Positions 6,440-24,689 of a stretch of DNA of 24,689 bases are shown piece by piece. The first letter of the stretch is position 1. Each line of letters opens with the position of its first letter. A program made the translations under genes and the position numbers. This stretch comes from Candidatus Limnocylindrales bacterium (GTDB taxonomy: Bacteria; Chloroflexota; Limnocylindria; Limnocylindrales; CSP1-4), in contig JBKJXL010000028.1 of NCBI GenBank assembly GCA_046716225.1, positions 1 to 24,689 on the forward strand, written 5' to 3'. A model generated the notes under the pieces. It was not told the DNA's origin. It did no database searches and saw only the letters and a program-made list of their open reading frames with translations.

Positions 6440-6458
6440 CCTGCAATCGGTTGCGCAA
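6430..6458 (-). promoter_or_regulatory. Divergent sigma70-like promoter for the metallohydrolase-iolH-iolG operon
   Basis: Minus strand TTGCGC (6458-6453), 17-nt spacer, TAGCAT (6435-6430); overlapped by the operator. Confidence 0.55.
6442..6457. promoter_or_regulatory. LacI-type operator, copy 1 (TGCAATCGGTTGCGCA)
   Basis: Near-palindrome with central CG fitting TGNAANCGNTTNCA. The 15-bp core recurs at 11112-11126 and 23813-23827; a LacI gene lies in the cluster. Confidence 0.85.
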
Positions 6459-10184: not shown

Positions 10185-11023
10185 ACAGAGAGCCGATCCG
10201 TCATCTCGCCTCGGGACCCGGGACCGGTACGGTCCTGGAGATCACCCCGGAGTCGATCGGATGGAAGTACATCAGCTCCAGCGTGGTGGCCCTTGGCGCG
10301 GGTCGGCGACACGAAGGGGACACCGGGCTCAACGAGGTCGCGATCGTCCCGCTTGTCGGGACCGCCGTCTTCGAATTCGCGGGGCAGACCCACACGGTCT
10401 CGCGCCGCGACGTCTTCACCGAGATGCCGCACGTGGCCTACCTGCCACCTCGGACGGCCTACACGATCACAGCGGTCGAGGCGTTTGAGTTCGCGTCGGG
10501 CGGCGTACCGGCCGAAGGGCGCCTCCCGGCGCGGCTCTTCACACCCGATGAGCTGCCGAGCTCGCTCCGCGGCGGCGTGAATGTCAGCCGCGGCGTGACC
10601 GGGACCCTCGACCTGAGTCTCCCGGCGGAACGCCTGCTCGCCTACGAGATCGTGACCCCGAGCGGGAACTGGTCGAGCTTTCCACCTCACCGCCATGACG
10701 GCACGAACGGGACCACCTATCACGAGGAGACGTACTACTTCCGACTCCAGCCTCGTGACGGCTTCGCGATCCAGCGGATTTACTCGCCCGAGAGCGAGCT
10801 CGACCTGTCGTTCTGCGCGCGAGATGGTGATCTCATCCTTGTCCACGAGGGGTACCACACGGTGGCGACCGCTCCAGGGACCAACGCGTACTACCTCAAC
10901 TTCCTCGGTGGCGACGTTCGCCCGGTGAGCCAGTACATCGACCCAGCCTACGCGTGGGTGGCCCAGGACTGGGAAGGTAGACCAGTCGGGATCCCCGTCG
11001 GAGGTCGTCGGGCCGCGGACTGA
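10181..11023 (+). CDS. iolB: 5-deoxy-glucuronate isomerase, 280 aa
   Basis: GNWSSFPPHRHD, HEETYYFR, QRIYS, GYHTVATAPG..YYLNFL cupin motifs; GTGA overlap. Confidence 0.9.
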   Translation: MNREPIRHLASGPGTGTVLEITPESIGWKYISSSVVALGAGRRHEGDTGLNEVAIVPLVGTAVFEFAGQTHTVSRRDVFTEMPHVAYLPPRTAYTITAVEAFEFASGGVPAEGRLPARLFTPDELPSSLRGGVNVSRGVTGTLDLSLPAERLLAYEIVTPSGNWSSFPPHRHDGTNGTTYHEETYYFRLQPRDGFAIQRIYSPESELDLSFCARDGDLILVHEGYHTVATAPGTNAYYLNFLGGDVRPVSQYIDPAYAWVAQDWEGRPVGIPVGGRRAAD

Positions 11024-11077
11024 CGGCCGATCATCGGCCCGGACGATCTTCCCGAAAACATCGATGTTCCCGAAATG

Positions 11078-11106
11078 TTGACGGGCGTGAGGTCGGATGC
11101 TACCGT
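11078..11106 (+). promoter_or_regulatory. Sigma70-like promoter for the aminotransferase-lacI-ABC operon
   Basis: TTGACG (11078-11083), 17-nt spacer, extended -10 TGcTACCGT ending at 11106; nearly identical to the promoter at 6410. Confidence 0.7.
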
Positions 11107-11110
11107 CCCC

Positions 11111-11126
11111 TGCAATCGGTTGCGCA
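11111..11126. promoter_or_regulatory. LacI-type operator, copy 2 (TGCAATCGGTTGCGCA)
   Basis: Identical to copy 1; 4 nt downstream of the -10 box. Confidence 0.85.
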
Positions 11127-11143
11127 GCGGAGGAAGGGCACGC

Positions 11144-12376
11144 ATGCCAGGACCAGGTCTCGATCTGCTCGGGTCGGAGGAGCTGGCCGAGGTCGCCGAG
11201 GTTCTGGCGAGTGGCCACCTCGCGCGGTATGGTCCCGACGACGACTCCTTTCCAGCCAAGGTGCGTCGGTTCGAGGAGCTCGTCGCCGAGCTGTCCCGGA
11301 CGAAGTACGCCCTGGCTCTCAACTCCGGCACGAGCGGCCTGTTCCTGGCCCTCGTCGGGCTCGGGATCGGACCAGGGGACGAGGTCATCGTGCCCGGCTT
11401 CACGTTCGTCGCCACGATCAGCTCGGTCATCTACGCGCGTGCCCGGCCGGTCCTCGCCGAGATCGATGACTCATTCAACCTCGACCCAAGGGACGTCGAG
11501 ACGCGCATCACGCCGCGGACGCGGGCGATCATCGTCGTCCACATGCTGGGCAACCCGGGGCGACTCGATGAGCTCAAGGTGGTCGCGGCACGGCACGGCC
11601 TCGCGCTCATCGAGGACGCCGCACAGGCCTTTGGCGCCACCTATCGCGGTCGCTGGGTCGGCGGTCAGGCGGAGGCCGGGGTCTACAGCTTCAACGAGTT
11701 CAAGACCATCACCTGCGGCGATGGCGGGATGCTGGTCACGGACGACGAGGACCTCTACAGGCGCGCCTTCGCCATGCACGACCAGGGACACAGCCCCAAC
11801 CGGCGCGGGATCGAGGTCGGCAATCGACCCTTCCTCGGGCTCAATTTCCGGATGACCGAGTTGCAGGGCGCGGTGCTGCTTGCCCAGGTGCGCCGGCTCG
11901 ACCGGATCCGGGACCACCTGCGGGCGAATCGCGATCTGGTCAAGGGCATCATCGGGGAGATCCCGGGGGTCGGCTTTCGGACGCTTCCGGATCCGGCAGG
12001 AGACCTCGCCACGCACCTCGTCGTCCTCTTTCCGGACGCCTCGACGGCCCGCGCGGTGACCGCGGAGTTGGGATCGATCACCCTGGCGTCATCGGGCTGG
12101 CATGTGTACAACCACATGGAGCACGTGCTGAGCGAACGGACCATCACCGGGCGCGGCTGTCCCTTTGACTGCGCTTGCACGGATGACCAGCCGACCGGAT
12201 ACCGGCCCGGGATGCTGCCCGAGACTGATCGGCTGCTTGACCGGTCGATGAGCTTCTCGATCGGCGTCCAGGATCCGAACCTCGCGCCGTTCGGCCTGCG
12301 GATGCGTGACGGCGCGGACGTCGCCCGCGCTCGGGCGGAGCAATTCCGCGCTGTCGCGTCACGCGTCCTGGCCTAG
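11144..12376 (+). CDS. DegT/DnrJ/EryC1/StrS family PLP-dependent aminotransferase, 410 aa
   Basis: NSGTSGL, GDEVIVPGFTFVAT, IEDAAQA (PLP Asp), SFNEFKTITCGDGG (Schiff-base Lys), GLNFRMTE. ATG 11144 follows GGAGGAAGG. Confidence 0.92.
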   Translation: MPGPGLDLLGSEELAEVAEVLASGHLARYGPDDDSFPAKVRRFEELVAELSRTKYALALNSGTSGLFLALVGLGIGPGDEVIVPGFTFVATISSVIYARARPVLAEIDDSFNLDPRDVETRITPRTRAIIVVHMLGNPGRLDELKVVAARHGLALIEDAAQAFGATYRGRWVGGQAEAGVYSFNEFKTITCGDGGMLVTDDEDLYRRAFAMHDQGHSPNRRGIEVGNRPFLGLNFRMTELQGAVLLAQVRRLDRIRDHLRANRDLVKGIIGEIPGVGFRTLPDPAGDLATHLVVLFPDASTARAVTAELGSITLASSGWHVYNHMEHVLSERTITGRGCPFDCACTDDQPTGYRPGMLPETDRLLDRSMSFSIGVQDPNLAPFGLRMRDGADVARARAEQFRAVASRVLA

Positions 12377-12393
12377 GACAGAGGCAGACCCTG

Positions 12394-13449
12394 ATGGCAG
12401 TCCGCGACGCCGCGCCGCATCGCCGGGTCGTCCTCGACGACGTCGCGCGGATGGCCAAGGTCTCGAGATCGACGGCGTCCCGCGCACTCGTTGACGATCC
12501 CCGGATCAGCGAGCCGACGCGCACCGCGGTTAAGCATGCCGCCAGCGAGCTCCAGTACGTTCCGAACGCGGCCGCTCGCAGCCTTCGTGCTCAACGGACC
12601 CGGATCCTCGGTCTCCTGCTGGCCAACTTGAGCGACCCGGTCCACGGGCAGATCGCCGCCGCGTTCGAGCAGGAGGCGGAGGCCGGCGGCTATCGGGTGA
12701 TCTTTGCCGCCGGCCTCCAGGACCCAGCGCTGGAGCGCAAGACCCTCAGCATCTTCACCGAACACGCGGCTGACGGAGTCGCGATGGTCTCCTGCGTCCT
12801 GGCTCCGAGCGAAGCCCGGGCGCGCGTTCGGCCCGACCGGCTGATCATCGTCCAGCCCGATCATCGCAGGGTGCAGCGGTACCGCGGCCCGCTCGTGCCC
12901 GGCGTGATCATGACTGACGACGCCAGCGGGGTCGAGGCGGTCGTCGATCACCTGGTGGCGACCGGTCACCGCGATATCGCCTACGTCGGAAGCGGCGCTC
13001 GCGCGTCGAGCACGGTGCATCGGGAAGCCGTCGGGCGAGCCCTCCAAAAGCATGGCATTCGTCCCCAGCTCGACCGCTTCCCGAGCCCGGACGACGCCTG
13101 GCGCGCTCCGGATGCCATCGCGACACTGATCGCCGCCGATCTGCCGGAGGCGCTGATCTGCTACGAGGACGTGCAGGCGCTCGCCCTGATGGACGCGTTG
13201 CGGCGCCTTGGCATCCAGACGCCCGACGATGTCGGCATCGTCGGCTTTGACGGAATCCTGTTCGCCGAGATGTCCAACCCACGCTTGACGACCGTGGCGA
13301 CCCCGCTGGCCGAGCTGGGGCGACTTGCGGCCTCGTCGCTGATCGGCGCCATCCAGACGGGGACGCTGCCCGAGGCCAGGGTCCTCCCAGTGCAGTTGGT
13401 CGTTCGCGAGAGCACGCGGTCGCGCGTCGCCCGGGAAGGCGAGGCGTAG
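12394..13449 (+). CDS. LacI family transcriptional regulator, 351 aa
   Basis: N-terminal HTH LDDVARMAKVSRSTASRAL, hinge YVPNAAARSL, C-terminal PDDVGIVGFDG..LTTV..LVVRES. Confidence 0.95.
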   Translation: MAVRDAAPHRRVVLDDVARMAKVSRSTASRALVDDPRISEPTRTAVKHAASELQYVPNAAARSLRAQRTRILGLLLANLSDPVHGQIAAAFEQEAEAGGYRVIFAAGLQDPALERKTLSIFTEHAADGVAMVSCVLAPSEARARVRPDRLIIVQPDHRRVQRYRGPLVPGVIMTDDASGVEAVVDHLVATGHRDIAYVGSGARASSTVHREAVGRALQKHGIRPQLDRFPSPDDAWRAPDAIATLIAADLPEALICYEDVQALALMDALRRLGIQTPDDVGIVGFDGILFAEMSNPRLTTVATPLAELGRLAASSLIGAIQTGTLPEARVLPVQLVVRESTRSRVAREGEA

Positions 13450-13452
13450 CGC

Positions 13453-14550
13453 GTGCCCGAGTCGCAACCCGCCATCGAGCTGATCGACGCGACCAAGCGC
13501 TACGGCGATGTCGTGGCACTCGACGGCGTCTCGCTCCAGATCGAACCGGGCGAGTTCTTCTGCCTCCTTGGACCGTCCGGCTGCGGGAAGACGACCACCC
13601 TCAACCTGATCGGTGGATTCCTCCCGCTGACGTCGGGCGAACTGCATATCGAGGGACGCCGGGTGAACGACCTGCCGCCCCACAAGCGCAACGTCAACAC
13701 GGTCTTCCAGAACTACGCCCTGTTCCCGCACATGAACGTCGCCCAGAACGTCGCGTTCGGGTTGCGAATGGCGGGCCTCGGCAAGGACGAGGTCGCCCGA
13801 CGGGTCGAGGAGTATCTGGACCTGGTCGGGCTGCTTGGCCACTCGGAGCGGTCACCGTCACAGCTCTCGGGCGGGCAGCAGCAGCGCGTCGCCCTGGCCC
13901 GTGCGCTGGCCAAACGGCCGGCGGTCCTCCTCCTCGACGAGCCGCTGGGCGCCCTCGACCTCAAGCTGCGTCACCAGATGCAGTTCGAGCTGGCCAGGAT
14001 CCACCGCCAGGTCGGGACGACCTTCGTGTTCGTGACACACGACCAGGAAGAGGCGCTCTCGATGTCCACCCGGATCGCCGTGATGTCGGGCGGCCGGGTC
14101 AGCCAGGTCGGCACCCCCCGCGAGATCTACTACAACCCCGTGGACCGCTTCGTGGCCGACTTCATCGGCGAATCGAACTTCCTCGCAGGTGCCGTCAGGC
14201 ACGAGGACGGCAGGCCCTGGTTCGTGCTCGAGAGCGGGGAGCGGATGCCCATCCCGGACGGGGCCGTGGAAGGACCGGCCACCGTGATGCTCCGGCCGGA
14301 ATCGCTCGTCGTGGGACCGGTCGGCAGCGCGCCCGGGCCGGCCATCACGGGCCGGATCCAGGGCATGGCGTTCATGGGCAATCACACGCGAGTCACAGTC
14401 AGCACGGCGGCGGGCGCCCTCGTCGTGCATCGACTCCACGGAGGCGGCGCAGGGCTTGGAGGTTCCGAGGGACAGATCGATGAGGAGGCATGCGTCTGGT
14501 GGTCACCCACGGAAGCGATCGTGATGGCAGAAACGGGAGCGAGGAGGTAA
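13453..14550 (+). CDS. ABC transporter ATP-binding protein, PotA/CysA type, 365 aa
   Basis: Walker A GPSGCGKT, VFQNYALFPHM, LSGGQQQRVALARAL, LLLDEP, FVTHDQEEAL, TOBE-like tail. Confidence 0.95.
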   Translation: MPESQPAIELIDATKRYGDVVALDGVSLQIEPGEFFCLLGPSGCGKTTTLNLIGGFLPLTSGELHIEGRRVNDLPPHKRNVNTVFQNYALFPHMNVAQNVAFGLRMAGLGKDEVARRVEEYLDLVGLLGHSERSPSQLSGGQQQRVALARALAKRPAVLLLDEPLGALDLKLRHQMQFELARIHRQVGTTFVFVTHDQEEALSMSTRIAVMSGGRVSQVGTPREIYYNPVDRFVADFIGESNFLAGAVRHEDGRPWFVLESGERMPIPDGAVEGPATVMLRPESLVVGPVGSAPGPAITGRIQGMAFMGNHTRVTVSTAAGALVVHRLHGGGAGLGGSEGQIDEEACVWWSPTEAIVMAETGARR

Positions 14551-14552
14551 CG

Positions 14553-15740
14553 ATGGATCCCATGGCTCGGAACAGGAACCTGACCCGGCGTCGTTTCCTG
14601 CAGGCGACGGCGGGAATCGGTGGTGTGGTCGCGTTCGGTGGCCTTGCGGCCGCGTGCTCGACCGGTGGCACCGGTACCAGTGCGGTGCCAGGTGCCAGCG
14701 CCGCGGCCGGCAGCAGCGCCGCGGCCGGCAGCAGCGCGGCGGCCGCGAGCCCAAAGGGCACCTTCAACTGGATGACCTGGAGCGATCACTACTACGAGGA
14801 GCAGCTCGCCGATATTGCGTCCACGAAGGAGATCAAGACCAGCGTCACCGAACTTGCCGACAACGCCGAAGGCTTCACCAAGGTCAAGGAGGTCGGCGGG
14901 CAGCTCGACATGATCTCGGGCGACGCGCTGTGGGTGCCGAAGTACTTCGAGGACGGGCTCATCGAGGCCTGGGACATCAACGAACTCCAGGTCGCGACGC
15001 AGCTCTACTCGATCGCTCGCGAGTTCGCCATCTGGACGAAGCCGGAGGGCTATCTCGGCTACCCGTTCGGGTGGTCGCCGGTCCAGCTCTACTACAACCC
15101 GAAGTTCGTCACCCCGACGCCCGACTCATGGGAGGTGCTGCTCGACCCCAAGTACAAGGGCCACATCGTCGTTGAGAACCAGCCCGTCGAGATCGTGGCC
15201 TACATGGCCAAGCTCGCCGGCGCGAAGGATCCGTACAACATGACCGCGGACGAGCTCGCCAAGGCGAGGGACCTGTTGACGCGCCTCAAGCCGAACCTCC
15301 TCAAGCTCACCCAGCAGAACACCGAGACGATCACCGCGCTGGTCAACGAGGAGGCCTGGATCGCAACCGGCAACCTGGGCGCCGAGGAACGGGTCAAGGA
15401 GGCCGGCGGACCCGAGGTGCTGGGCTTCACCCCGAAAGAGGGCACCGTCGGCTGGATGGACGCGGAGATGCTGGTCAAGGGCGGCAAGAACAACAACCTG
15501 CTCAAGCCCTTCCTGGAGGTCGCCGAGCAGGCGCCATACATCGCCGAGAACTTCATCAAGTACGGTCGCCCGCTGTTCAACGAAGCCGCCTACAAGCTGC
15601 TCGTCGACAAGGGCCAGAAGGACCGCGCCGACCGCTTCCTGTACAACAAGCCGGAGACGGTCCTGGCGATGACGCTCAAGGGCCCCGGGTCGTCGACCCA
15701 GGGCGCGATCGACGCCTTCAACGAGGTCTTCGGGGCCTAG
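14553..15740 (+). CDS. Tat-exported lipoprotein substrate-binding protein, PotD/PotF-like, 395 aa
   Basis: TRRRFL twin-arginine signal, LAAAC lipobox, WMTWSDHY, PDSWEVLLDPKYKG, PKEGTVGWMD; GAGGAGG SD before ATG 14553. Confidence 0.85.
   Translation: MDPMARNRNLTRRRFLQATAGIGGVVAFGGLAAACSTGGTGTSAVPGASAAAGSSAAAGSSAAAASPKGTFNWMTWSDHYYEEQLADIASTKEIKTSVTELADNAEGFTKVKEVGGQLDMISGDALWVPKYFEDGLIEAWDINELQVATQLYSIAREFAIWTKPEGYLGYPFGWSPVQLYYNPKFVTPTPDSWEVLLDPKYKGHIVVENQPVEIVAYMAKLAGAKDPYNMTADELAKARDLLTRLKPNLLKLTQQNTETITALVNEEAWIATGNLGAEERVKEAGGPEVLGFTPKEGTVGWMDAEMLVKGGKNNNLLKPFLEVAEQAPYIAENFIKYGRPLFNEAAYKLLVDKGQKDRADRFLYNKPETVLAMTLKGPGSSTQGAIDAFNEVFGA
14697..14750 (+). repeat. 18-bp tandem repeat, 2 exact copies plus 1 degenerate (SAAAGS linker)
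   Basis: AGCGCCGCGGCCGGCAGC at 14697 and 14715; AGCGCGGCGGCCGCGAGC at 14733. Confidence 0.85.
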
Positions 15741-15760
15741 CCGCCAAGTACACCCGCATC

Positions 15761-16681
15761 ATGTCCCGTCTCACCGTCCAGCGTGAGCTGCCCGCGCCGC
15801 TCGTCCAACTCGGGCGGGCGGCCCGGATCGACCGCCTATGGCGACTTGCGCCGGCCATGCCGGGAGCGGTGGCGCTGGTCCTCCTGTTCCTCGCGCCAAT
15901 GGCCTTCATGCTGGTCTTCAGCTTCTGGCGGACGGACGTCGACTTCAACCTGGTTCCGGACTGGAACCTGAACAACTACCTCAAGTTCTTCACCGTCCCG
16001 ACCTACATCCGGACCTTCCTCAAGACGATGCTGATGGCGGCTGCCGTCACGGCGGCCGGGCTCGCCGCCGCCATTCCTTTCACCTATTTCCTTGTCCGCT
16101 ACGTCAGCCGTCGATGGCAGCGCCTGGTCCTGCTGGCGGTCATCGTGCCGTTCTGGACGAGCTACCTGCTGCGCGTCTACGCGTGGCAGGCGATCCTGGG
16201 TGAGCGGGGCGCGCTCAACCAGGCCCTCCAGGCCCTCGGCATCCTCGACGAACCCTCGCGCCTGTTCGTCTACAACGACGTCGGGGTGTTCATCGTCCTG
16301 GTATACGTCTACTTCCCATTCGCGGCGCTCGCGCTTTACGCGGCGATGGAGAAGTTCGACTTCAGCCAGCTGCATGCGGCGCAGGACCTGGGAGCGCGGC
16401 CGGACCAGGCGTTCCGGCACATCCTGGTGCCGCAGATCCGGTCGGGGATCATCACGGCCAGCATCTTCATGTTCATCCCAATCCTGGGCGAGTTCCTGAC
16501 GCCGACCCTCGTCGGCGGCGTCCAGGGTTCGCTGATCGCGAATCTCGTCGTCAACTTCTTCCGCGGGGCGCAGATCGCCCAGGGTGCGGCCTTCGCGATC
16601 ATCATCGCCCTGTTCGTCACCGCGCTGCTGGTCGTCTTCCGCAAGTACCTGCGGATCGAGGACGTGGTCGCCCGTGGCTAG
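15761..16681 (+). CDS. ABC transporter permease, PotB-like, 306 aa
   Basis: Hydrophobic helices; VPFWTSYLLRVYAW, EAA-like loop LHAAQDLGARP, FIPILGEF. Confidence 0.92.
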   Translation: MSRLTVQRELPAPLVQLGRAARIDRLWRLAPAMPGAVALVLLFLAPMAFMLVFSFWRTDVDFNLVPDWNLNNYLKFFTVPTYIRTFLKTMLMAAAVTAAGLAAAIPFTYFLVRYVSRRWQRLVLLAVIVPFWTSYLLRVYAWQAILGERGALNQALQALGILDEPSRLFVYNDVGVFIVLVYVYFPFAALALYAAMEKFDFSQLHAAQDLGARPDQAFRHILVPQIRSGIITASIFMFIPILGEFLTPTLVGGVQGSLIANLVVNFFRGAQIAQGAAFAIIIALFVTALLVVFRKYLRIEDVVARG

Positions 16682-17522
16682 GCGCGTCGACCCGCTCGAG
16701 ACGATGCCGGTCAGCCCTTATGCCCGGCCCACGCGCTGGGCGCTCTGGCTTTGGGCCGCAGCCATCCTCGTCTTCCTCTATCTGCCGATCGGGTTCCTGG
16801 TGCTCTTTTCGTTCAACGAGCCGCGGACGCCGGGCCTGCCGATCGTCGGCCTCACACTGCACTGGTATGAGGTGGCGGCCGGCAACAGCATCCTCCTGGA
16901 CGCGGTGAAGAACTCGATCATCGTGGCGGCGGCCGTGGCGGGGATCGCGACGCTCATCGGCACGATGGCGGCCTTCCCACTGGTCCGTGGCGGGATCCGT
17001 CATGCCGATGCCGTCCGGATCGTCGCGACGATGCCGATCATGCTGCCCGGGATTCTCCTGGGGATCGCGATGCTGATCTTCTTCCGCCGTGTGCTGGACC
17101 TCGAGTTGTCGCTCCTGACCGTGATCGCTGGGCACCTCGTGTTCACCACGCCGTTCGTCGTGTTGATCGTTGCGGCGCGGCTCCAGGGCTTCGACCGCAG
17201 ACTCGAGTGGGCGGCCGCCGATCTAGGGGCCAGTCCGCGCCAGACTCTCCGATACGTCATCCTTCCGCTCATCTCGCCGGCGATCGTCGCGGGGGCGCTC
17301 ATCAGCGTCACCCTGTCGATCGACGAGTTCATCATCACGTTCTTCACGGTGGGACCGCAAGTGACTCTTCCGCTCTACATCTACACCCAGATCAAGTTCG
17401 GGGTAACGCCCGAGTTGAACGCCGTGGCGACCGTGCTGTTGGTCGCGACGATCGGCCTGCTGCTCGGCGCCGGACTGGTCATGCGCGGCGGTCGAAGATT
17501 CCTGAAACGAGCCGCGCGATGA
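16674..17522 (+). CDS. ABC transporter permease, PotC-like, about 282 aa
   Basis: FLYLPI..LVLFSFN, LEWAAADLGASP, SVTLSIDEF, TLPLYIY..PELNA. Start GTG 16674 (alternative ATG about 16704). Confidence 0.92.
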   Translation: MARRVDPLETMPVSPYARPTRWALWLWAAAILVFLYLPIGFLVLFSFNEPRTPGLPIVGLTLHWYEVAAGNSILLDAVKNSIIVAAAVAGIATLIGTMAAFPLVRGGIRHADAVRIVATMPIMLPGILLGIAMLIFFRRVLDLELSLLTVIAGHLVFTTPFVVLIVAARLQGFDRRLEWAAADLGASPRQTLRYVILPLISPAIVAGALISVTLSIDEFIITFFTVGPQVTLPLYIYTQIKFGVTPELNAVATVLLVATIGLLLGAGLVMRGGRRFLKRAAR

Positions 17523-18526
17523 TGCGCGCCGCCGTCTTCGTCGGGACCGGCGAGCTGCGCCTCGAGGACCGCCCGGAACCACGCATCGAGCTCGCCGATG
17601 ACGTCCTGATCGCCGTCGAGGCGTGCGGGATCTGTGGCAGCGACCTCCAGATCCTCAACGTGCCGCCTGGGCACCCGGCGACGCCCGGCACGATCCTCGG
17701 GCATGAGTTCGTCGGGCGTGTCCAGGACGTGGGCGAGACCGTCAGCGCCGTGCAGGTCGGCGAGCGCGTGGTCGTGGACCCGGACCCGAAGTGCGGCGCA
17801 TGCACCTCGTGCCGGGCGGGCAGGCCCGCCAACTGCGAGAACATTCGCGCGCTCGGCGTCTATCGCGACGGTGGCCTGGCCGGTTTCGTGATTGCGCCGG
17901 CGGCGGCCATATATCCGATCTCGGACGACGTGCCGGCGACGCTCGCGTCGCTGGTCGAGCCGCTGGCGTGCGTCATCAACGGCACGAATCGGGCGGCGAT
18001 CAGGCCGGGGGAATCTGTCGTGGTCATGGGCGCGGGCACGATCGGCTGCCTGTTCGCCGCGGTATTCAAGGCCGCCGGAGCCGGACCGATCATCGTGGTC
18101 GAGCCGAACCCTGTTCGCGCCGCGGTCGCTCGAGCCGTGGCGGCAGACGTCACCTTGACCCCGGACGAGTTCGCCGCACGTCGGACCGAACTCCTTCCGC
18201 GCGGGGCCGACGTCGTGGTGGATGCCGTCGGCAGCGTGCTTGGCCCGGCCATCGAGGCCGCGGCGATGGGCGGACGGGTCGTCCTGTTCGGCATGAACGG
18301 GGCGGCGCGGCCACCGATCCACCAGGTCGAGATCACGGAAAAGGGTCTCGCCATCCTGGGGTCGTACATCTCGAACTTCACCTTCCCGACTGCCATTCGG
18401 CTGGTCGAGAGCGGCACGCTCAACCTCGCGCCGATCGTCTCCGCCGTCCTGCCGCTGAGTCAGACGCTCGACGGGATCGCTCGCCTCCGGTCGGGCGAGG
18501 CCACGAAGATCGTCATTACGCCCTGA
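17519..18526 (+). CDS. Zn-dependent medium-chain alcohol/polyol dehydrogenase, 335 aa
   Basis: CGICGSD, GHEFVG, four-Cys structural Zn site CGACTSC..PANC, GAGTIG, acidic VEP (NAD preference); ATGA overlap with the permease. Confidence 0.92.
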   Translation: MMRAAVFVGTGELRLEDRPEPRIELADDVLIAVEACGICGSDLQILNVPPGHPATPGTILGHEFVGRVQDVGETVSAVQVGERVVVDPDPKCGACTSCRAGRPANCENIRALGVYRDGGLAGFVIAPAAAIYPISDDVPATLASLVEPLACVINGTNRAAIRPGESVVVMGAGTIGCLFAAVFKAAGAGPIIVVEPNPVRAAVARAVAADVTLTPDEFAARRTELLPRGADVVVDAVGSVLGPAIEAAAMGGRVVLFGMNGAARPPIHQVEITEKGLAILGSYISNFTFPTAIRLVESGTLNLAPIVSAVLPLSQTLDGIARLRSGEATKIVITP

Positions 18527-18556: not shown

Positions 18557-19552
18557 TCAGGCCTCTTCGTAGATCTCGGGATTGGCGATGTTCGGGGCTC
18601 GGCCGCCGGCAAGGACCGCGGCCATGCCCTCGGCCATCTCCTCAAAGGTGCGGCGTCTGCCGCGCCTGGACAGGCCGAGCACGTGCGGCGTCAGGACCAC
18701 GGCCGGATGCCCAAAGATCGGGTGCCCCTCGGGCGGTGGCGGCTCCGGCTCGTAGACATCGAGACCGACACCCGACAGGCGACCGTCCAGCAACGCCGCA
18801 TGGACGGCGTCGAGGTCGAGCAGGCCGCCCCTGCCGCAGTTGACCAGGACGGTCCCGGGCCGAACCCGAGCCAACAGCCCGGCGCCCACGAGATCGGTGG
18901 TCTCCGCGGTCAGGGGCGCGTGAAGACTGATCACATCGGCGGTTTCGACCAGCCGCACGAGATCGACCAGCTCGACCCCCATCCTGGCCGCGATCTTCGG
19001 GTCCGCGTACGGGTCGAACGCCACGATCCGCATGCCGAGGACCGTGCACAGCTCGGCCAGCCGGCGCCCGATCCGCCCGAAGCCGACGATGCCGAGCGTC
19101 GCCCCGTCCAGATCGCCGAGCTCGACCGACTCACGCTCGGCCCAGCGGCCCGCGCGGACCAGCTCGGTCAGCGGACCCAGCCGCTTGATCAGGTGCAGGA
19201 TGTGGGCGAGCGCGCCCTCGGCCACGGCGTTCGTGCCCGCACCGGGCGTGACGACGACGGGGATGCCTCGCTCACTCGCCGCGGTCAGATCGACCAGCTC
19301 GACACCGATCCCGCTCCGCCCGATGACCCGGAGCCGCGGGGCCGCCGCGATCAGCGGCCGGTCGACGACACTGTTGCCGCGGGCGATCAGGGCAATCGCC
19401 TCCGGCAGGAGCCCGGCGAGCGATGCGCCGTCCTGGGTCGCCTCGACGATGTCACCGAATGCGCGCAGCCGGTCCGCGACGAGCGTGTCGACCGGGCCCA
19501 ACGCCAGGATCGGCCCGCGCGGGAGCTCGGTGTCCGCTCCCGACCCGGTCAC
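18557..19552 (-). CDS. D-isomer-specific 2-hydroxyacid dehydrogenase (SerA/hydroxypyruvate reductase-like), 331 aa
   Basis: AVAEGAL, GIVGFGRIG, FDPY, SLHAPLT, VNCGRGG, LDVYEPEP, LTPHVLG. Confidence 0.9.
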   Translation of the reverse strand: MTGSGADTELPRGPILALGPVDTLVADRLRAFGDIVEATQDGASLAGLLPEAIALIARGNSVVDRPLIAAAPRLRVIGRSGIGVELVDLTAASERGIPVVVTPGAGTNAVAEGALAHILHLIKRLGPLTELVRAGRWAERESVELGDLDGATLGIVGFGRIGRRLAELCTVLGMRIVAFDPYADPKIAARMGVELVDLVRLVETADVISLHAPLTAETTDLVGAGLLARVRPGTVLVNCGRGGLLDLDAVHAALLDGRLSGVGLDVYEPEPPPPEGHPIFGHPAVVLTPHVLGLSRRGRRRTFEEMAEGMAAVLAGGRAPNIANPEIYEEA

Positions 19553-19589
19553 CGTCTTCGTCTCCGGGCCGCCGACCGCGCCCGGGCGT

Positions 19590-20390
19590 TCACAGCCCGG
19601 TCAGGGCCGCGCCGGCCGTCCCGGCGCGTGGCACGGCGGCCCTGAAGCTCATCACGGCTTGTTGCGCTGCGAACGCGAGCGAGGTCGAGTCTGAGCCTAC
19701 GGCCACGAAGGTGAATCCCTCCTCGGCATAGCGGACTGCCGCTTCGGCGGTTCCCGCGAGGATGCCGGCCGCGATGTCGGCTGACTCGGCAGCCCGACTG
19801 ACCCGGGCCAGCGCATCCCGAAATGTCGGATGGTCCAGGCGACCCGGGATCCCCAGGGCGTGGGTCAGATCTCGTGGGCCCACGAAGAGGACATCGACTC
19901 CTGGGACCCGGGCGATCTCCTCGACCGCCTCGACGGCGGCGACACTCTCGATCTGGACGACCGCAACGATGAGATTTCCGGCCGTCTCGAGCCTCTCGGG
20001 GAAGAGTCCAAAGCCGATCGACCGGTTGTAGGTCGCCACGCCTCGGTCGCCGTCAGGCGGGTAGTGGAGGTGACGGACCGCCGCGGCGACTTCGTCAGCG
20101 GACTCGAGACGGGGGAACATCACGCCCGCCGCGCCCGCGTCGAGGACACGGCCGGAGCGGATGCGACTCGCACTTTCGACCCGCACGAGAACGGGCACGT
20201 CGTGGGCTGCCCCCGCGAGGAGCTGTCCGAGGGCGCCGTCCTCGCCGCGGCCGCCGTGCTCGAGGTCGATGAGCAGCCAGTCGAAGCCGGCCAGGGCACA
20301 TGCCTCCGCAGCGAGTGGGCTGCCGAGGTTCAGGAACGTGCCGATCAGCGGGACGCGGCCACGGACCCGCTCGCGGAGCGTGTCATCCAT
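19590..20390 (-). CDS. HpcH/HpaI family class II aldolase, about 266 aa
   Basis: GFDWLLIDLEHG, VLVRV, LDAGAAGVMFP, HYPPDGDRG, VQIES, DVLFVGPRDL. Start 20390, alternatively 20417. Confidence 0.88.
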   Translation of the reverse strand: MDDTLRERVRGRVPLIGTFLNLGSPLAAEACALAGFDWLLIDLEHGGRGEDGALGQLLAGAAHDVPVLVRVESASRIRSGRVLDAGAAGVMFPRLESADEVAAAVRHLHYPPDGDRGVATYNRSIGFGLFPERLETAGNLIVAVVQIESVAAVEAVEEIARVPGVDVLFVGPRDLTHALGIPGRLDHPTFRDALARVSRAAESADIAAGILAGTAEAAVRYAEEGFTFVAVGSDSTSLAFAAQQAVMSFRAAVPRAGTAGAALTGL

Positions 20391-20404
20391 TCCCGGTCCG
20401 GTGA

Positions 20405-22321
20405 TCACCCGTGCCATCGCTGGCTCGCCAGGCCCTGCTCGTACTCGTCTCGTCGCTCCCTGACCTCGGGCAGGATTGAGGTTTCGGCCGAGGCGACGTC
20501 CCACCAGACACCGGCAGGCGGCAGGTTCACGTCGGGATTCGTCGGTACCACGATGACGCTCGGACCCGGGTAGGCGCGGGCGTCGCCCAGTGCCGTGCGA
20601 ACGGCGTCCGGCGTGGTCGCGCGCGTCGCGCGGGCGCCGAGGCCCGCGGCCAGTGCCACGAGATCGAGATCGAGGTACTCGCCGTCCAGGGCAGCCTCAG
20701 TCAACGGTCCCGTCCGCTTCCGGAACTCGTTCCCGAAGCCTGCACCGTTGCGCATCAGCTGCAGTCGACGGATGACCTGGAACCCGTGGTTCTCGGAGAT
20801 CACCACCGTCACATTCAAGCCCTCCTGGAGGGCCGTGACCAGCTCTGTCGGCTGCATGAGAAAGGTCCCGTCGCCGATCAGGGCGATGACCGCGCCCTGG
20901 CTCTGTGCCAGGCGCACGCCGAGGGTTGCCGGCAGCTCGTAGCCCATGCACGAGTATCCGAATTCGAGGTGGCATGACCTCCCGCCCGTGGCGTCCCAGA
21001 CCTTGAGGAGATCGCCGGGGGGTCCACCGGCGGCGGCGACGATCGTGTCGCCCGGTAGGGCCGCTTCCTGGAGGACGCCGATCAGCTGACCCTGGGTCAT
21101 CAGCGTCGTCTCGGCTGCCTCGGCCCCCTCGGCAAGTCGCTCCGGCTCGGGGGGCGCCAGGGCGTCGGCGCGAATCGGCAGCCAGGTGGCCTTGACGGCT
21201 CGGGCGCGCGTCTCCCACTCGGGTTGCGGTCGAGTGCCTGCCTCGCGGGCTGCGGCGCGGAGGGCCAGCAAGGCGCGGCGGGCGTCGGCGACGATCGGCA
21301 CGGCGCCCTGCTTGCGCGCGTCATGGTCGGTCACGTTGACCGAGGCGAACCGGACATCGGGATCCGCGAAGATCGACTGCGAGGCGGTCGTGAAGTCCGT
21401 CAAGCGTGTGCCGACGTGAAGAATGAGGTCGGCTTCGGCAGCCAGGGCGTTGGCCGCCGGATTGCCCTCCACGCCGATGCCACCCATGCCCCACCACGCA
21501 TCCTTCTGGACGGCGCCCTTGCCCGCGAATGTCTCGGTGACCGGGATCCCGAACTCCGCGGCGAGCGCGGCCAGCTCCGCGATCGCGTCCGAGTAGTGGA
21601 CGCCCCCGCCGGCGACGACCAGCGGACGCCGGGCGATGGCCAGCATGCCAGCCACGATCGCCACGTCGTCGAGATCTGGCGCAGGCCGCGCGATCGTCCA
21701 GTCGCGCGGCGCGAAGAAGGCCGCCGGGTAGTCGTGCGCCTCGGTCTGGACGTCCTGGGGCAAGGCGATCACGACCGCTCCCATCTCGGATGGGCTGGTC
21801 AGGACGCGCATCGCTTCGGGCAGCGCCGTCAGGAGCTGCTCCGGACGGGTGATCCGGTCGAAGTAGCGAGCGACCGGCCGGAAGCAGTCGTTCACGCTCA
21901 CATCACCGGCCGACGGGTTCTCGAGCTGCTGGAGGACCGGCCCCTGGCGGCGGGTCGCATAGGTGTCGCCCGGGAGGAGGAGCACCGGCAGCCGGTTGAT
22001 CGTGGCCAGCGCGGCGCCGGTCACCATGTTCGTTGCGCCGGGGCCGATCGACGCGGTCACGGCGAGCAGGGCACGCCGACGCGAGGCCTTGGCATATGCC
22101 GTGGCCACGTGGACGAGCGACTGCTCGTTGCGGCCCTGGATGTAGGGCATGTCCGTGCGGAACTCGTCCAGCGCCTGGCCAAGGCCGGCGACGTTGCCGT
22201 GACCAAAGATCCCGAGCATGGCGGGGACCGAACGCCGACGTTCGCCATCGGCGACGCTGTACTGCTGGCCGAGGTAGCGAACGACCGCCTGCGCCATGGT
22301 CAATCGCACCGTCGTCGACAT
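20405..22321 (-). CDS. iolD: Trihydroxycyclohexane-1,2-dione acylhydrolase (IolD), copy 2, 638 aa
   Basis: TVRLTMAQA, GIFGHGNVAGLGQAL, NEQ, SIGPGATNMVT, GGPPGDL, HLEFGYSCMGYE, GDGTFLM; AGGAGG SD. Confidence 0.9.
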   Translation of the reverse strand: MSTTVRLTMAQAVVRYLGQQYSVADGERRRSVPAMLGIFGHGNVAGLGQALDEFRTDMPYIQGRNEQSLVHVATAYAKASRRRALLAVTASIGPGATNMVTGAALATINRLPVLLLPGDTYATRRQGPVLQQLENPSAGDVSVNDCFRPVARYFDRITRPEQLLTALPEAMRVLTSPSEMGAVVIALPQDVQTEAHDYPAAFFAPRDWTIARPAPDLDDVAIVAGMLAIARRPLVVAGGGVHYSDAIAELAALAAEFGIPVTETFAGKGAVQKDAWWGMGGIGVEGNPAANALAAEADLILHVGTRLTDFTTASQSIFADPDVRFASVNVTDHDARKQGAVPIVADARRALLALRAAAREAGTRPQPEWETRARAVKATWLPIRADALAPPEPERLAEGAEAAETTLMTQGQLIGVLQEAALPGDTIVAAAGGPPGDLLKVWDATGGRSCHLEFGYSCMGYELPATLGVRLAQSQGAVIALIGDGTFLMQPTELVTALQEGLNVTVVISENHGFQVIRRLQLMRNGAGFGNEFRKRTGPLTEAALDGEYLDLDLVALAAGLGARATRATTPDAVRTALGDARAYPGPSVIVVPTNPDVNLPPAGVWWDVASAETSILPEVRERRDEYEQGLASQRWHG

Positions 22322-22337
22322 GCGGCGTGCCCTCCTG

Positions 22338-23759
22338 TCAAGTGGCTCCGTGAAGGATGATCGTCTTGGTCTCGGTCATCTCCTCGACGGCCCAGCGGGG
22401 TCCCTCCTTGCCGATCCCACTGCTCTTGAGACCGCCGTAGGGCATCAGGTCCGCCCGCCACAACGGCGTCCAGTTGATATGGACGCTGCCCGCGTCGACG
22501 TCGCGCGCGAATCGCAATGCGCTGGTCACGTCGCGCGTGAAGACGCCGGCCCCGAGTCCGTAGCGGCTGGCGTTGGCCAGCCGGATCGCCTCGTCGATCC
22601 CGGACGCCGTGGAGACGGCGACTGCCGGGCCGAACAGCTCCTCCTGGCTCAGCGAGCTGGCCGGGTCGACATCGGCCACGACGGCCGGCGAGAGCATGGT
22701 CCCATCGCGCTCGCCCCCGCACAGCACGCTGGCCCCGGACGCCACGCTCCCACGGATCGCCTGCTCCACCCGGCGTGCCTCGACTTCGCTGACCAGGACG
22801 CCCATCGTCGTCTGCGGATCGAGTGGGTCACCGGTCCGGATCGTCCTGACCAGCGGCGTCAGGGCGTCGAGGAAATCGCCGACGACGGCCTGGTCGACGA
22901 GCACGCGCTGGACCGAGATGCAGACCTGGCCTGCGTTGACATATCCGCCGATCGAGACGGCCCGAGCGGCGAGTTCGATGTCCGCGTCGGGCAGCACCAC
23001 CACCGGGCAGCTCGCCCCGAGCTCGAGGGAGAGCCGTTTGACGCCGGCGACCCGGGTGATCGCTTCGCCGGTGGCCGAGTTCCCGGTGAAGCTGATCTTG
23101 CGCACGCGCGGATCGCTGCACAGCAGCTCGCCCAGCTCCGCGCCCGGGCCCGTGACGCACGAGATCGCCTCGGGATCGAGGCCGGCATCGAGCAGGATCT
23201 GCGTGAGCTTAAGGGCCGTGAGGGGCGTCTTCCGGGCGGGCTTGAGAATGACCGCATTGCCCGCCGCGAGGGCGGGAGCGATCTTGTGGAGCACGAGGAG
23301 GGACGGGTAATTGAACGGCGTGATCGCCACGACGACGCCGCACGGCTGTCGAAGCGTGAAGCCGAGTCGCCCCTGGCCCGCGCCGCGATGCGCGTCGAGC
23401 GGGAGACTGTCGCCGTAGAGGTGAGCCCCCTCGAACGCAGCCAGGCGCAACATGTCGCCCGCCCTGGAGGCTTCGCCGGTCGCCTCCGTGAGGAGCTTGC
23501 CGGACTCGAGCGAGATCGTCCGGGCCAGGTCGTCGACCCGTTCGTCCGCGAGATCGGCGGCCCGCAGGAGGATCGCCTGCCGATCGTAGGCAGGGGTGTG
23601 GCGCTGTCGTTCGGCGCCCCTCACGGCGGCGGCGAGGGCCCGCTCGATGTCCGCACGGGATGCCACCGGCACAGTGTCGATCACGTCCCCGTTGAACGGG
23701 TTGACGACCTCCTCGCGGACTGCGCCGTCCATCCAGTCGCCGGCGATGAGCATGCGCAT
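22338..23759 (-). CDS. NAD(P)-dependent aldehyde dehydrogenase (lactaldehyde-DH/GapN-like, not IolA/MmsA type), 473 aa
   Basis: AITPFNYP, LKPARKTP, SFTGNS, LELGASCP (Glu), GQVCISVQR (Cys), EELFGP, PYGGLKSSGIGKEG. ATG 23759 follows GGAG. Confidence 0.9.
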   Translation of the reverse strand: MRMLIAGDWMDGAVREEVVNPFNGDVIDTVPVASRADIERALAAAVRGAERQRHTPAYDRQAILLRAADLADERVDDLARTISLESGKLLTEATGEASRAGDMLRLAAFEGAHLYGDSLPLDAHRGAGQGRLGFTLRQPCGVVVAITPFNYPSLLVLHKIAPALAAGNAVILKPARKTPLTALKLTQILLDAGLDPEAISCVTGPGAELGELLCSDPRVRKISFTGNSATGEAITRVAGVKRLSLELGASCPVVVLPDADIELAARAVSIGGYVNAGQVCISVQRVLVDQAVVGDFLDALTPLVRTIRTGDPLDPQTTMGVLVSEVEARRVEQAIRGSVASGASVLCGGERDGTMLSPAVVADVDPASSLSQEELFGPAVAVSTASGIDEAIRLANASRYGLGAGVFTRDVTSALRFARDVDAGSVHINWTPLWRADLMPYGGLKSSGIGKEGPRWAVEEMTETKTIILHGAT

Positions 23760-23805: not shown

Positions 23806-23835
23806 TTGACCGTGCGCAACCGATTGCGCTAACCT
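23806..23835 (+). promoter_or_regulatory. Sigma70-like promoter for the iolE-like gene
   Basis: TTGACC (23806-23811), 18-nt spacer containing the operator, TAACCT (23830-23835). Confidence 0.6.
23813..23828. promoter_or_regulatory. LacI-type operator, copy 3 (minus strand CGCAATCGGTTGCGCA)
   Basis: Plus strand TGCGCAACCGATTGCG is the reverse complement of the same 15-bp core. Confidence 0.85.
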
Positions 23836-23919: not shown

Positions 23920-24689
23920 ATGTCAACCGCTCGCATGCGTGTCGCCGGGGCGCCGGTCTCGTTCGGTGTCGACGAGATCATGGTCGACGATGCCTGGATG
24001 CCGGGGCCGGAGGACGTGCTCGACTGGCTCGTGGACATCGGTGTCGAGGGCACGGAGCTGGGCCCCCCGGGCTATCTGGGCGACTCCGCGCAACTTAGGG
24101 AACGCCTCTCGTCTCGTGGGCTGGAACTCGTGGGATCCTTCCTGCCCCAGCATTTCAGCCGGAACGAGCTGGCCGAGACGGACCGCGCCTGGCTGTCCGA
24201 GAGCCTGAAGCTCGTCCGTGACGGTGCCCCCGACGGGTCGCGGCCGCTGGCAGTCCTGAGCGACCAGTTCGATGAGCCGGACCGCCGGGCGTTCTCGGGT
24301 CAGATCCAGTCGCATCCCGAGACGTGGCTGTCGCCCGACCGATTCGAGGCGCTGATCGCCAACCTCCACCGAGCCTCGGAACTGTGTCGCGCGGCGGGCT
24401 TCGAGGTCGTCCTCCATCCGCATGCCGGGACCTATGTCGAGACCGCCGATGAGATCGCCCGGGTGGTGGATCGGATCGACCCATCGCTGCTGGGGTTGTG
24501 TCTCGATACCGGCCACTTTCGGTTCGGCGGCGCTGACCCGACGCAGGCTGTGCACGACTATCACGAGATCATCCGCCACGTCCATCTCAAGGACTGCATG
24601 ACCCAGGTGATGGACGACGTCAAGGCCGATGGGCAGGGGCTCGAGGAGGCCCTCCGCCGGGGCGTGTTCTGCGAGCTCGGCAAGGGCGA
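23920..24689 (+). CDS. iolE: Myo-inosose-2 dehydratase-like TIM-barrel protein, truncated at the window end
   Basis: Not in the ORF track because it has no stop. My translation from ATG 23920: MSTARMRVAGAPVSFGVDE..GTELGPPGYLG..HPHAGTYVET..LCLDTGH..HVHLKD..FCELGKG, the pattern of actinobacterial-type inosose dehydratases. Confidence 0.72.
   Translation, partial: MSTARMRVAGAPVSFGVDEIMVDDAWMPGPEDVLDWLVDIGVEGTELGPPGYLGDSAQLRERLSSRGLELVGSFLPQHFSRNELAETDRAWLSESLKLVRDGAPDGSRPLAVLSDQFDEPDRRAFSGQIQSHPETWLSPDRFEALIANLHRASELCRAAGFEVVLHPHAGTYVETADEIARVVDRIDPSLLGLCLDTGHFRFGGADPTQAVHDYHEIIRHVHLKDCMTQVMDDVKADGQGLEEALRRGVFCELGKG

Follow-up and report, generated by a model that had tools for sequence, protein, structure and literature searches.

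The oxidative uronate/aldarate pathway runs through Udh, a lactonase, glucarate dehydratase and the GarL aldolase, and non-phosphorylative Entner-Doudoroff routes are also known. In Azoarcus sp. 22Lin, the cyclohexane-1,2-dione hydrolase route converts the dione to 6-oxohexanoate and then to adipate, and Thermotoga maritima has an inositol route, IolG-IolM-IolN-IolO, that operates without IolD and finally enters a uronate pathway that depends on a kinase. The canonical myo-inositol pathway of Bacillus subtilis and Salmonella, IolG-IolE-IolD-IolB-IolC-IolJ-IolA, has been surveyed (PMC9430895); that survey counts iolB and iolC among the core genes and calls a genome an inositol user only when at least three of iolB, iolC, iolD and iolE are present.

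Here, we report an analysis of a four-gene block that, judging from its sequence, is probably an undescribed second route for finishing inositol-type ring breakdown, by oxidation and splitting with no phosphorylation. Because the enzyme families and the chemistry are known, it would be a new branch and not a new kind of system. The literature covered, from which subscription papers fell outside, yielded no paper on IolD with HpcH, an aldehyde dehydrogenase (ALDH) or deoxyglucarate.

Gene layout and predicted operators

The window, that is, the whole stretch of 24,689 nucleotides that was analysed, belongs to a Candidatus Limnocylindrales genome of 2.16 Mb that is 62% complete. Its features are as follows.

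6473..11023, plus strand: second ring-opening operon behind operator 1 (6443-6457), with IolD1, a split transketolase (2 genes) and IolB (Pfam)
10181-11023, plus strand: iolB (PF04962)
11075..18526, plus strand: DegT-type aminotransferase, LacI, polyamine-type ABC importer and Zn-dehydrogenase, behind operator 2 (11112-11126) (Pfam/NCBIfam)
18557..19552, minus strand: D-isomer-specific 2-hydroxyacid dehydrogenase (PF00389/PF02826), a SerA-like core without the regulatory domain
19590..20408, minus strand: HpcH/HpaI class II pyruvate aldolase (PF03328, 130 bits)
20405..22321, minus strand: IolD2, ThDP-dependent cyclohexane-1,2-dione acylhydrolase (TIGR04377, 781 bits, cut-off 715)
22338..23759, minus strand: ALDH (PF00171, 491 bits; no NCBIfam family over its cut-off)
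23813..23827, no strand: third copy of the predicted LacI-type operator, lying 54 nt ahead of the ALDH start and common to the divergent iolE-like gene
23920..24689, plus strand: IolE-like inosose dehydratase (PF01261; TIGR04379, 118 bits, below cut-off), partial at the contig end

The block comprises ALDH, IolD2, the aldolase and the dehydrogenase, four intact minus-strand open reading frames with gaps of 16, -4 and 37 nt in block order and with catalytic residues in all four proteins, which confirms the earlier note's description of four co-oriented genes behind the third operator. The genome contains exactly three copies of the 15-mer operator, all inside the window, against 0.004 expected from base composition. 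The operator also precedes ALDH in four related loci (L023, L025, L028, L041), and the IolE-like gene, whose product likely supplies the dione to IolD2, holds the same position in L023, L027, L028 and L041. A sigma-70 promoter scan gave no match.

The block operon contains none of iolB, iolC and iolJ and so lacks the canonical lower pathway. The claim that no iolB stands beside iolD2 holds for adjacency, but the regulon marked by the operator does include an iolB, at a distance of 9.4 kb. Neither this 62%-complete genome nor any of nine genomes of the same genus and five further close Chloroflexota genomes gave an iolC over the cut-off. The operon between the two ring-opening operons, conserved in Limnocylindria relatives, probably feeds in amino-cyclitols; the best model for its Zn-dehydrogenase is IolM (211 bits, below the cut-off of 450).

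A putative oxidative lower pathway

We assign a probability of about 58% to the reading that the block encodes an oxidative lower pathway, complete in itself, for the IolD2 product, ending in HpcH cleavage to (hydroxy)pyruvate and malonate semialdehyde. By family knowledge, a Gfo/Idh/MocA dehydrogenase and the IolE-like dehydratase would produce a cyclohexane-1,2-dione, which IolD2 may hydrolyse to a 5-deoxy-uronate. ALDH would oxidise the aldehyde to a deoxy-aldarate, the D-2-hydroxyacid dehydrogenase would form a 2-oxo acid by oxidising the hydroxyl at (R)-C2, and HpcH would split C3-C4 to give malonate semialdehyde plus hydroxypyruvate from myo- or scyllo-inositol, or plus pyruvate from a ring without that hydroxyl. 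IolA, encoded elsewhere or within related operons, would clear the malonate semialdehyde.

No kinase step is expected before cleavage, and the earlier note's term 'phosphorylation-free' is apt up to that point but not beyond it, a glycerate product still being kinase-dependent. NAD-linked oxidation of 2-hydroxy acids is uphill, a point against this reading; if hydroxypyruvate is formed, its reduction to D-glycerate by that dehydrogenase may repay the uphill step. The order of steps proposed previously is supported in part, fitting the gene substitutions in relatives and the stereochemistry. By our own derivation, 5-deoxy-D-glucarate is 2R, the configuration that D-2-hydroxyacid dehydrogenases need, and the 2-oxo acid formed from it is 3S; where HpcH-family enzymes add substituted pyruvates, no other C3 configuration has been reported (PMC7610986).

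The predicted enzymes

IolD2 retains E66, the GDG motif and N511 and is 47% identical to IolD1 (880 bits with TIGR04377). IolD2-type proteins are a distinct subfamily with a separate clade in the IolD tree. IolD enzymes convert 3D-(3,5/4)-trihydroxycyclohexane-1,2-dione to 5-deoxy-D-glucuronate; IolD2 and canonical IolD have 191 conserved columns in common and 14 that differ, mostly conservatively; the subfamily-specific columns give no sign for or against an altered substrate. Some members of the clade adjoin IolB/IolC only, and a search at E<=1e-40 found no solved IolD structure. The three downstream enzymes have no close characterised relative in structure and sequence comparisons, which counts against the preferred reading.

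The ALDH belongs to an uncharacterised orthologue family in the GapN/lactaldehyde-dehydrogenase-like group, and we propose that it acts as a deoxy-uronate to deoxy-aldarate dehydrogenase. C280, E246, N150 and K173 are present; R99, R435, W430 and W434 are invariant among 50 orthologues, and R176 suggests NADP as the cofactor. By profile score, the top models are lactaldehyde (482 bits, cut-off 650), phosphonoacetaldehyde (PhnY, 373/636), GapN (353/780) and sulfoacetaldehyde (SafD, 346/700) dehydrogenases, all below cut-off. In GapN and PhnY, an Arg precedes the catalytic Cys; in 47 of the 50 orthologues, Val279 directly precedes Cys280. The nearest solved structures are 31-37% identical, and a fold search with the AlphaFold model (pLDDT 91) returned generic ALDHs only, at 31-37% identity.

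IolA/MMSDH (TIGR01722, cut-off 448.5) is missing from the 25 best families for this ALDH. Four relatives, and block operons too, encode a true MMSDH separately from ALDH. It is over the cut-off in or beside the ALDH operon in L269, L289 and L291 and recognised by similarity in L292, and an identification of ALDH as IolA was rejected since related operons hold a true IolA besides. This arrangement fits malonate semialdehyde as a product and excludes ALDH as its only sink.

The dehydrogenase carries the R241, E270 and H290 triad and an NAD-type D180, with R58 and R140 kept in 92% or more of 50 orthologues. Its best PDB matches are phosphoglycerate dehydrogenases and McyI, and no named equivalog was over cut-off.

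The aldolase, whose GTG start overlaps the IolD2 stop (alternative ATGs at 20417 and 20390), would by our proposal act on a 4-hydroxy-2-oxo-adipate-type acid and cleave it. With numbering that starts at the codon at 20402, its H49, R74, E152 and D178 align with H45, R70, E149 and D175 of HpaI, F23 with W19 and L215 with L212; Leu occupies the L212 site in 59 of 61 orthologues and Phe the W19 site in 60 of 61. None of three named equivalog models was over its cut-off (GarL 180/407, HpaI 178/369, RhmA 114/441 bits). At the site equivalent to HpaI L212, the hydroxypyruvate specialist SwHKA presumably has Phe210. We counted against the preferred reading both the Leu found here at this site and the rarity of hydroxypyruvate use, seen in only 19 of the 571 class II aldolases that were screened (PMC7610986).

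Conservation of the block and competing explanations

The earlier note had asked whether the block is kept as a unit, and the genome samples and metagenome loci answer strongly that it is. Among 400 Actinomycetes genomes, sampled without bias like the Acidobacteriota below, 171 have IolD; the six with an IolD2-type protein are exactly the six with an ALDH orthologue, and the 165 with ordinary IolD only all lack it. The IolD2-type proteins of those six are 59-67% identical to the query, every other IolD being at most 53%, and ALDH, IolD2, HpcH, the dehydrogenase and IolE occur together in all six. In 200 Acidobacteriota, ALDH was found in 4/4 IolD2-type, 0/8 canonical-IolD and 6/188 IolD-free genomes. 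ALDH-anchored metagenome loci contained IolD in 66 of 67 cases and IolD plus HpcH in 42 of 42; where enough sequence was available, all four genes were present in 24/24 loci and IolB/C in one. ALDH was likewise present in 15 of 19 genomes, several at chromosome level, that have an IolD2-type protein and neither IolB nor IolC. Kin are not independent in these co-occurrence counts; the tallies include the unpublished genomes G079 and G080, on which alone no claim is based. Chance adjacency of the four genes was rejected.

The four genes keep company in several bacterial phyla and are found, for example, in Amycolatopsis echigonensis and Amycolatopsis sp. RTGN1. In a plasmid search, the best match reached 46% for ALDH and 51% for IolD2, and neither an ALDH orthologue nor an IolD2-type protein was detected. 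That the four genes are co-inherited without forming one pathway, each having an accessory or promiscuous role with unrelated sugar acids, seems highly improbable: gene order is shuffled in L269, L289, L189 and L030 yet content is kept, non-orthologous HpcH and dehydrogenase subfamilies have been recruited, and a start/stop overlap is present. Sporadic single-gene losses and the six Acidobacteriota with ALDH and no IolD speak for this explanation. The losses, which we also counted against the oxidative reading, comprise hpcH, cleanly lost in the close relative L023/G061 where only paralogues of about 45% are left, and ALDH, absent from G062 and G063 where IolD2 is kept. In sponge-type genomes, ALDH is unlinked and there are 4-11 HpcH paralogues, so that adjacency there is weak evidence.

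Gene substitutions bear on the intermediates. In other Limnocylindria, where no ALDH orthologue occurs, a third IolD is accompanied by an SDR and an SMP-30 lactonase, together with a 2-hydroxyacid dehydrogenase and a dissimilar HpcH (33% identical). In Solirubrobacterales an L-arabinonate-dehydratase-like gene follows shortly after IolD2-ALDH. Both observations suggest an aldonic/aldaric acid as the intermediate. The latter observation also fits a variant with the same IolD2-ALDH entry in which an unlinked IlvD/EDD or enolase-family dehydratase would form 4-hydroxy-2-oxoadipate, HpcH would cleave it to pyruvate and malonate semialdehyde, and the 2-hydroxyacid dehydrogenase would reduce a side product only. 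Such a course would avoid the uphill oxidation and use the aldolase's default donor, and AraD-like dehydratase genes lie after IolD2-ALDH in L030 and L264 and after ALDH alone in L267, with a galactonate-dehydratase-like gene between HpcH and IolD2 in L094. However, an IlvD-like gene occurs in none of the 24 long block loci, all of which retain the dehydrogenase, and the unassigned neighbours of 104 block loci show no recurrent dehydratase; we therefore regard this variant as unlikely.

Many block-bearing genomes retain iolB/iolC, and in Thermoleophilia/Gaiellales iolC-iolB lie in the block cluster with a single IolD, an arrangement that we counted against the oxidative reading. Three of these genomes (G070, G095, G104) have no clustered canonical aldolase; searches of the three revealed neither a Cgl0159 nor a class II FBA aldolase, and two had no more than a weak DUF2090 match outside the cluster. 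This would agree with a rival reading in which HpcH stands in for IolJ and splits what IolB and IolC make into dihydroxyacetone(-phosphate) and malonate semialdehyde, with ALDH oxidising the latter to malonate and the dehydrogenase being accessory; L031 and L037, with HpcH beside iolB/iolC and no ALDH, would agree as well. For these two loci, HpcH as IolJ was rejected, their genomes (G068 and G073) carrying a Cgl0159 aldolase of their own. Moreover, 5-keto-gluconates lack the 2-oxo-carboxylate through which HpcH-family enzymes hold the donor on the metal (PMC11194214), several operons have IolA beside ALDH, and the block is found without IolB/C, which makes this role for HpcH quite improbable.

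A link through hydroxypyruvate between the block and the transketolase operon, suggested in the earlier note, found no support as a general feature and was rejected: the split transketolase occurs in 0/24 long metagenome block loci, and two genomes with the transketolase operon, G005 (83% complete) and G023 (93%), have no ALDH orthologue. The same data weigh on the idea that the three downstream enzymes serve fragments of the IolB branch and not the IolD2 product, the split transketolase taking two carbons off 2-deoxy-5-keto-gluconate, ALDH converting malic semialdehyde to malate, and side products going to the aldolase and dehydrogenase. The operator is common to both operons, the ALDH group acts on small or anionic aldehydes according to its top models, and malic semialdehyde is likewise a 2-hydroxyaldehyde with a distal carboxylate, so that dual use of ALDH is possible in this genome. 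Nevertheless, ALDH follows IolD2 and not transketolase, and 15 genomes with ALDH and IolD2 have no IolB; a service to IolB-branch fragments is, in our view, distinctly unlikely.

Possible substrates and implications

Within the oxidative reading, ordinary inositol and a deoxy-cyclitol, possibly derived here from an amino-cyclitol, are about evenly placed as substrate. With a deoxy-cyclitol, 2,4-dihydroxyadipate would give 4-hydroxy-2-oxoadipate and then pyruvate plus malonate semialdehyde, and a deoxy-amino-cyclitol could be brought in via the DegT/polyamine-type importer operon. It is a tentative and rather doubtful proposition that IolD2 and the three enzymes are dedicated to such a compound (a quercitol-type plant cyclitol or a deoxy-amino-cyclitol) that lies out of reach of the IolB/IolC route. 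If true, it would account for the presence of multiple IolDs, at least two being kept in five of six sampled Actinomycetes, both Amycolatopsis genomes, a 1.5 Mb streamlined genome and this window, and for two single-contig hosts in which both searched glycerate kinase families are missing. Glycerate kinase was present in the source genome and 21 of 24 tested genomes, with none found in G611 and G707, and its presence does not discriminate between readings. A hydroxypyruvate-isomerase-like gene was seen near two loci only, with a score far below cut-off.

If the oxidative pathway is real, genomes with IolD and IolE and without IolB/IolC are overlooked inositol users, among them Acidobacteriota, Poribacteria, Latescibacterota, Dehalococcoidia and small actinobacteria, and the enzyme subfamilies labelled 'GAPN', 'SerA' and 'HpcH' would gain actual substrates. 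It could give hydroxypyruvate-using aldolases a natural role or be the first deoxy-cyclitol catabolic route. As the two Amycolatopsis strains carry the operon, the route is testable.

Comparison with known systems

The block resembles canonical iol systems in an IolD over the cut-off, IolE-like and IolG-like partners and malonate semialdehyde/IolA as the likely end, but its IolD and IolE are distinct subfamilies, and ALDH, the D-2-hydroxyacid dehydrogenase and HpcH replace IolB, IolC and IolJ in the operon. As in Thermotoga maritima, the route would be non-canonical, and the window's Zn-dehydrogenase recalls IolM by its best, sub-threshold score; unlike that route, the block includes IolD and would lack a kinase-dependent uronate end. 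With the Azoarcus sp. 22Lin pathway it would share the hydrolysis of a dione by a ThDP-dependent enzyme and, after it, an aldehyde dehydrogenase step, whereas the substrate would be polyhydroxylated, the hydrolase is of the true IolD family, and oxidation and aldol cleavage would stand in for beta-oxidation. The oxidative uronate/aldarate route offers the parallel of an aldehyde oxidised to an acid, a 2-oxo acid and an HpcH-family retro-aldol cleavage, kinase-free before cleavage, as proposed for the block, and the SDR-lactonase variant of the relatives mirrors its Udh and lactonase. In contrast to that route, the proposed substrate is a deoxy-uronate from ring opening, GarL models score below cut-off, and the 2-oxo group would come from a dehydrogenase and not from a dehydratase: an aldarate dehydratase is encoded in neither the block nor the 24 long loci and is seen in variant loci.

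Genomic setting

Contig C28 is a single cyclitol cluster from a host genome of 2.16 Mb that is 62% complete, and the nearest relatives of its second IolD (IolD2) come from Chloroflexota MAGs (77-85% identity), one of them named Limnocylindrales. The cluster comprises two inositol-dehydrogenase-like genes, an IolH-like barrel, an LLM oxidoreductase, a CehA/McbA-like hydrolase, the other IolD (IolD1) with a split transketolase and IolB, a DegT aminotransferase with LacI, a polyamine-type ABC importer, a Zn-dehydrogenase, the four-gene block and a divergent IolE-like gene:

277-881, minus strand: second Gfo/Idh/MocA gene, seemingly split across two frames, part of the C-terminal domain missing
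3790-6393, minus strand: CehA/McbA-like metallohydrolase, 867 aa, first gene of the left operon
6473-11023, plus strand: IolD1 - split transketolase - IolB operon, without a kinase
11075-18526, plus strand: DegT aminotransferase, polyamine-type ABC importer, Zn-dehydrogenase
23759-18557, minus strand: block of ALDH, IolD2, HpcH and D-2-hydroxyacid dehydrogenase

The split Gfo/Idh/MocA gene appears to be a pseudogene or an assembly error, and the metallohydrolase is retained in related clusters (L109-L113, L160, L162) at 45-77% identity. The IolD1 operon is kept in several Limnocylindria (L105, L106, L108, L160-L162); by analogy with the sulfo-transketolase route, its transketolase could yield malic semialdehyde by cleaving the IolB product. 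The DegT protein has KdnA as its top PDB match and also matches 2-deoxy-scyllo-inosose aminotransferase; the DegT/importer/Zn-dehydrogenase set, found again with IolD in Solirubrobacterales (L030, L264, L267), suggests amino-cyclitol uptake.

The four co-oriented genes described in the earlier note are real, tightly spaced (16, -4 and 37 nt) and with catalytic residues kept in all. IolD2 scores above the IolD cut-off; ALDH, HpcH and the dehydrogenase pass no named equivalog. The same note had no iolB beside this iolD, which holds for the block operon, but iolB is present elsewhere in the same regulon. The whole genome has three copies of the operator, each within the window, against 0.004 expected; the one before ALDH is conserved in relatives. 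A one-mismatch copy on another contig of this genome (C384, near 3820) possibly marks a further regulon member. No iolC over the cut-off was found in the window genome or 14 relatives; IolA was not found in this 62% complete genome and is present in four relatives.

Conservation as a unit

All four genes are present in 12 of 80 genome loci fetched with IolD2, from Limnocylindria, Thermoleophilia/Gaiellales and other actinobacteria. In a set of 80 metagenome loci retrieved with ALDH as query, IolD was found in 66 of the 67 having room downstream, IolD plus HpcH in 42/42 and the full set in 24/24. These 24 include a Gfo dehydrogenase in 22, nearest to levoglucosan and scyllo-inositol dehydrogenases, an IolE-like gene in 12 and iolB/C in one. 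The split transketolase occurs in none of the 24 and ALDH does not follow it; as a general feature, the transketolase link proposed earlier is not supported.

Two unbiased samples, 400 Actinomycetes and 200 Acidobacteriota, served as controls. IolD was found in 171 of the Actinomycetes and is of the IolD2 type in six (59-67% identity to the Amycolatopsis query, then a gap down to 53%); exactly these six have an ALDH orthologue, and each has the full block plus IolE. In Acidobacteriota, ALDH is present in 4/4 genomes with IolD2, 0/8 with canonical IolD and 6/188 without IolD. Five related Acidobacteriota (L271-L275) keep an ALDH orthologue (51-53%) in an unrelated neighborhood, with no IolD found. 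Few candidates were scored per genome and related genomes are not independent; hence, no p-value is attached to these co-occurrences. ALDH, mostly unlinked, is also present in 15 of 19 genomes that have IolD2 but neither IolB nor IolC, several of these genomes being single chromosomes. Thus, ALDH follows IolD2, and conservation as a unit, the check proposed earlier, was borne out in the metagenome loci and Actinomycetes. The clean loss of hpcH from a close relative (L023) and the orphan IolD2 retained in two genomes (G062, G063) count against the block being one pathway.

The block is a real and widely conserved lower branch for inositol-type catabolism that has apparently not been described; it most likely proceeds by oxidation and uses no kinase until carbon-carbon cleavage. 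No paper on this gene combination was found in the searchable literature. Amycolatopsis carries the block, making the branch testable there; A. echigonensis and strain RTGN1 (L291, L292, L298-L302) have it in addition to one or two canonical iolC-iolB-iolD clusters, the genome behind L292 having three IolD clusters.

Proposed order of steps

Gene context suggests that ring opening would be followed by oxidation to an aldarate, formation of the 2-oxo acid by oxidation or dehydration and, last, aldol cleavage. We give the order as proposed, with the dehydrogenase making the 2-oxo acid, a probability of about 0.58; this order and a dehydratase variant, taken jointly, are appreciably more probable. 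Two gene arrangements bear on this:

L111:4336-11743, also L109, L110, L112, L113: IolE - SMP-30 lactonase - 2-hydroxyacid dehydrogenase - Gfo - HpcH - third IolD - SDR
L264:7986-13178 and L030:9938-16104: IolD2 - ALDH, then an L-arabinonate-dehydratase-like IlvD/EDD gene

The first, in five loci of other Limnocylindria, may be the same route built from non-orthologous enzymes. Its HpcH is distant (33% identity) and the genomes carrying it have no ALDH orthologue; an SDR with a lactonase is the usual alternative for making an acid from an aldose or uronate by oxidation, so the pair plausibly occupies the ALDH slot. The second, from Solirubrobacterales, is a candidate dehydratase version, its dehydratase scoring 868 bits (cut-off 882); in an Isosphaerales locus, HpcH and IolD2 are separated by an enolase-family dehydratase. 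Dehydratases of both kinds act on sugar acids. Elsewhere (L267:19904-21422, L282), IolB adjoins a transaldolase-family gene with IolC absent, possibly another kinase-free lower branch.

ALDH is not IolA itself, given that true MMSDH/IolA lies in or beside the same operons (L269, L289, L291; in L292, identified by similarity). Because IolA accompanies ALDH there, malonate semialdehyde is the likely cleavage product. HpcH might instead stand in for IolJ. This reading is kept alive by Thermoleophilia and Gaiellales, where iolC-iolB adjoin the block, IolD is single and the cluster contains no canonical aldolase; two other test cases, however, carry their own Cgl0159 aldolase, and the HpcH family requires a 2-oxo-carboxylate donor (PMC11194214).

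Stereochemistry is compatible with the oxidative order. By our CIP assignment, 5-deoxy-D-glucarate is 2R, which fits a D-specific dehydrogenase, and its 2-oxo acid is 3S, the sole C3 configuration reported for substituted-pyruvate additions by the HpcH family (PMC7610986). ALDH retains R99, R435 and two tryptophans, W430 and W434, that are either peculiar to the family or invariant within it; these residues are compatible with, although not diagnostic of, a polyhydroxylated acid. The dehydrogenase retains two extra arginines, R58 and R140, presumably equivalent to the SerA anion-binding sites, which would suit a dicarboxylate. The weak point is its NAD-linked oxidation, which is energetically uphill; cleavage plus IolA could provide the pull, or the same dehydrogenase could do so by reducing hydroxypyruvate to glycerate. 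Glycerate kinase is present in the window genome.

Substrate and comparison with known systems

Ordinary inositols and a deoxy-cyclitol are about evenly matched as substrates. For the former speak a true IolG (392 bits, cut-off 355) encoded in the A. echigonensis operon, IolD2 as the sole IolD in many hosts, clade members pairing with IolB/IolC alone and pocket-lining motifs largely shared with canonical IolD. A deoxy-cyclitol is favored by retention of a second IolD in 5/6 sampled Actinomycetes, both Amycolatopsis genomes, the window and even the 1.5 Mb genome G707; by the rarity of hydroxypyruvate use, accepted by 19 of 571 screened aldolases (PMC7610986); by the lack of both glycerate kinase families searched in the single-contig hosts G611 and G707; and by amino-cyclitol-type feeder genes found with the oxidative branch in both Limnocylindria and Solirubrobacterales. 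Upstream of one block (L290:4122-9746), two GH4 glycosidases and a PIG-L deacetylase could free inositol from an N-acetylglucosaminyl-inositol-type glycoside. Divergent to another (L288:8238-16049), a two-subunit CoA-transferase recalls the 3-oxoacid CoA-transferase that processes the C3 fragment in Anaerostipes (PMC8355322).
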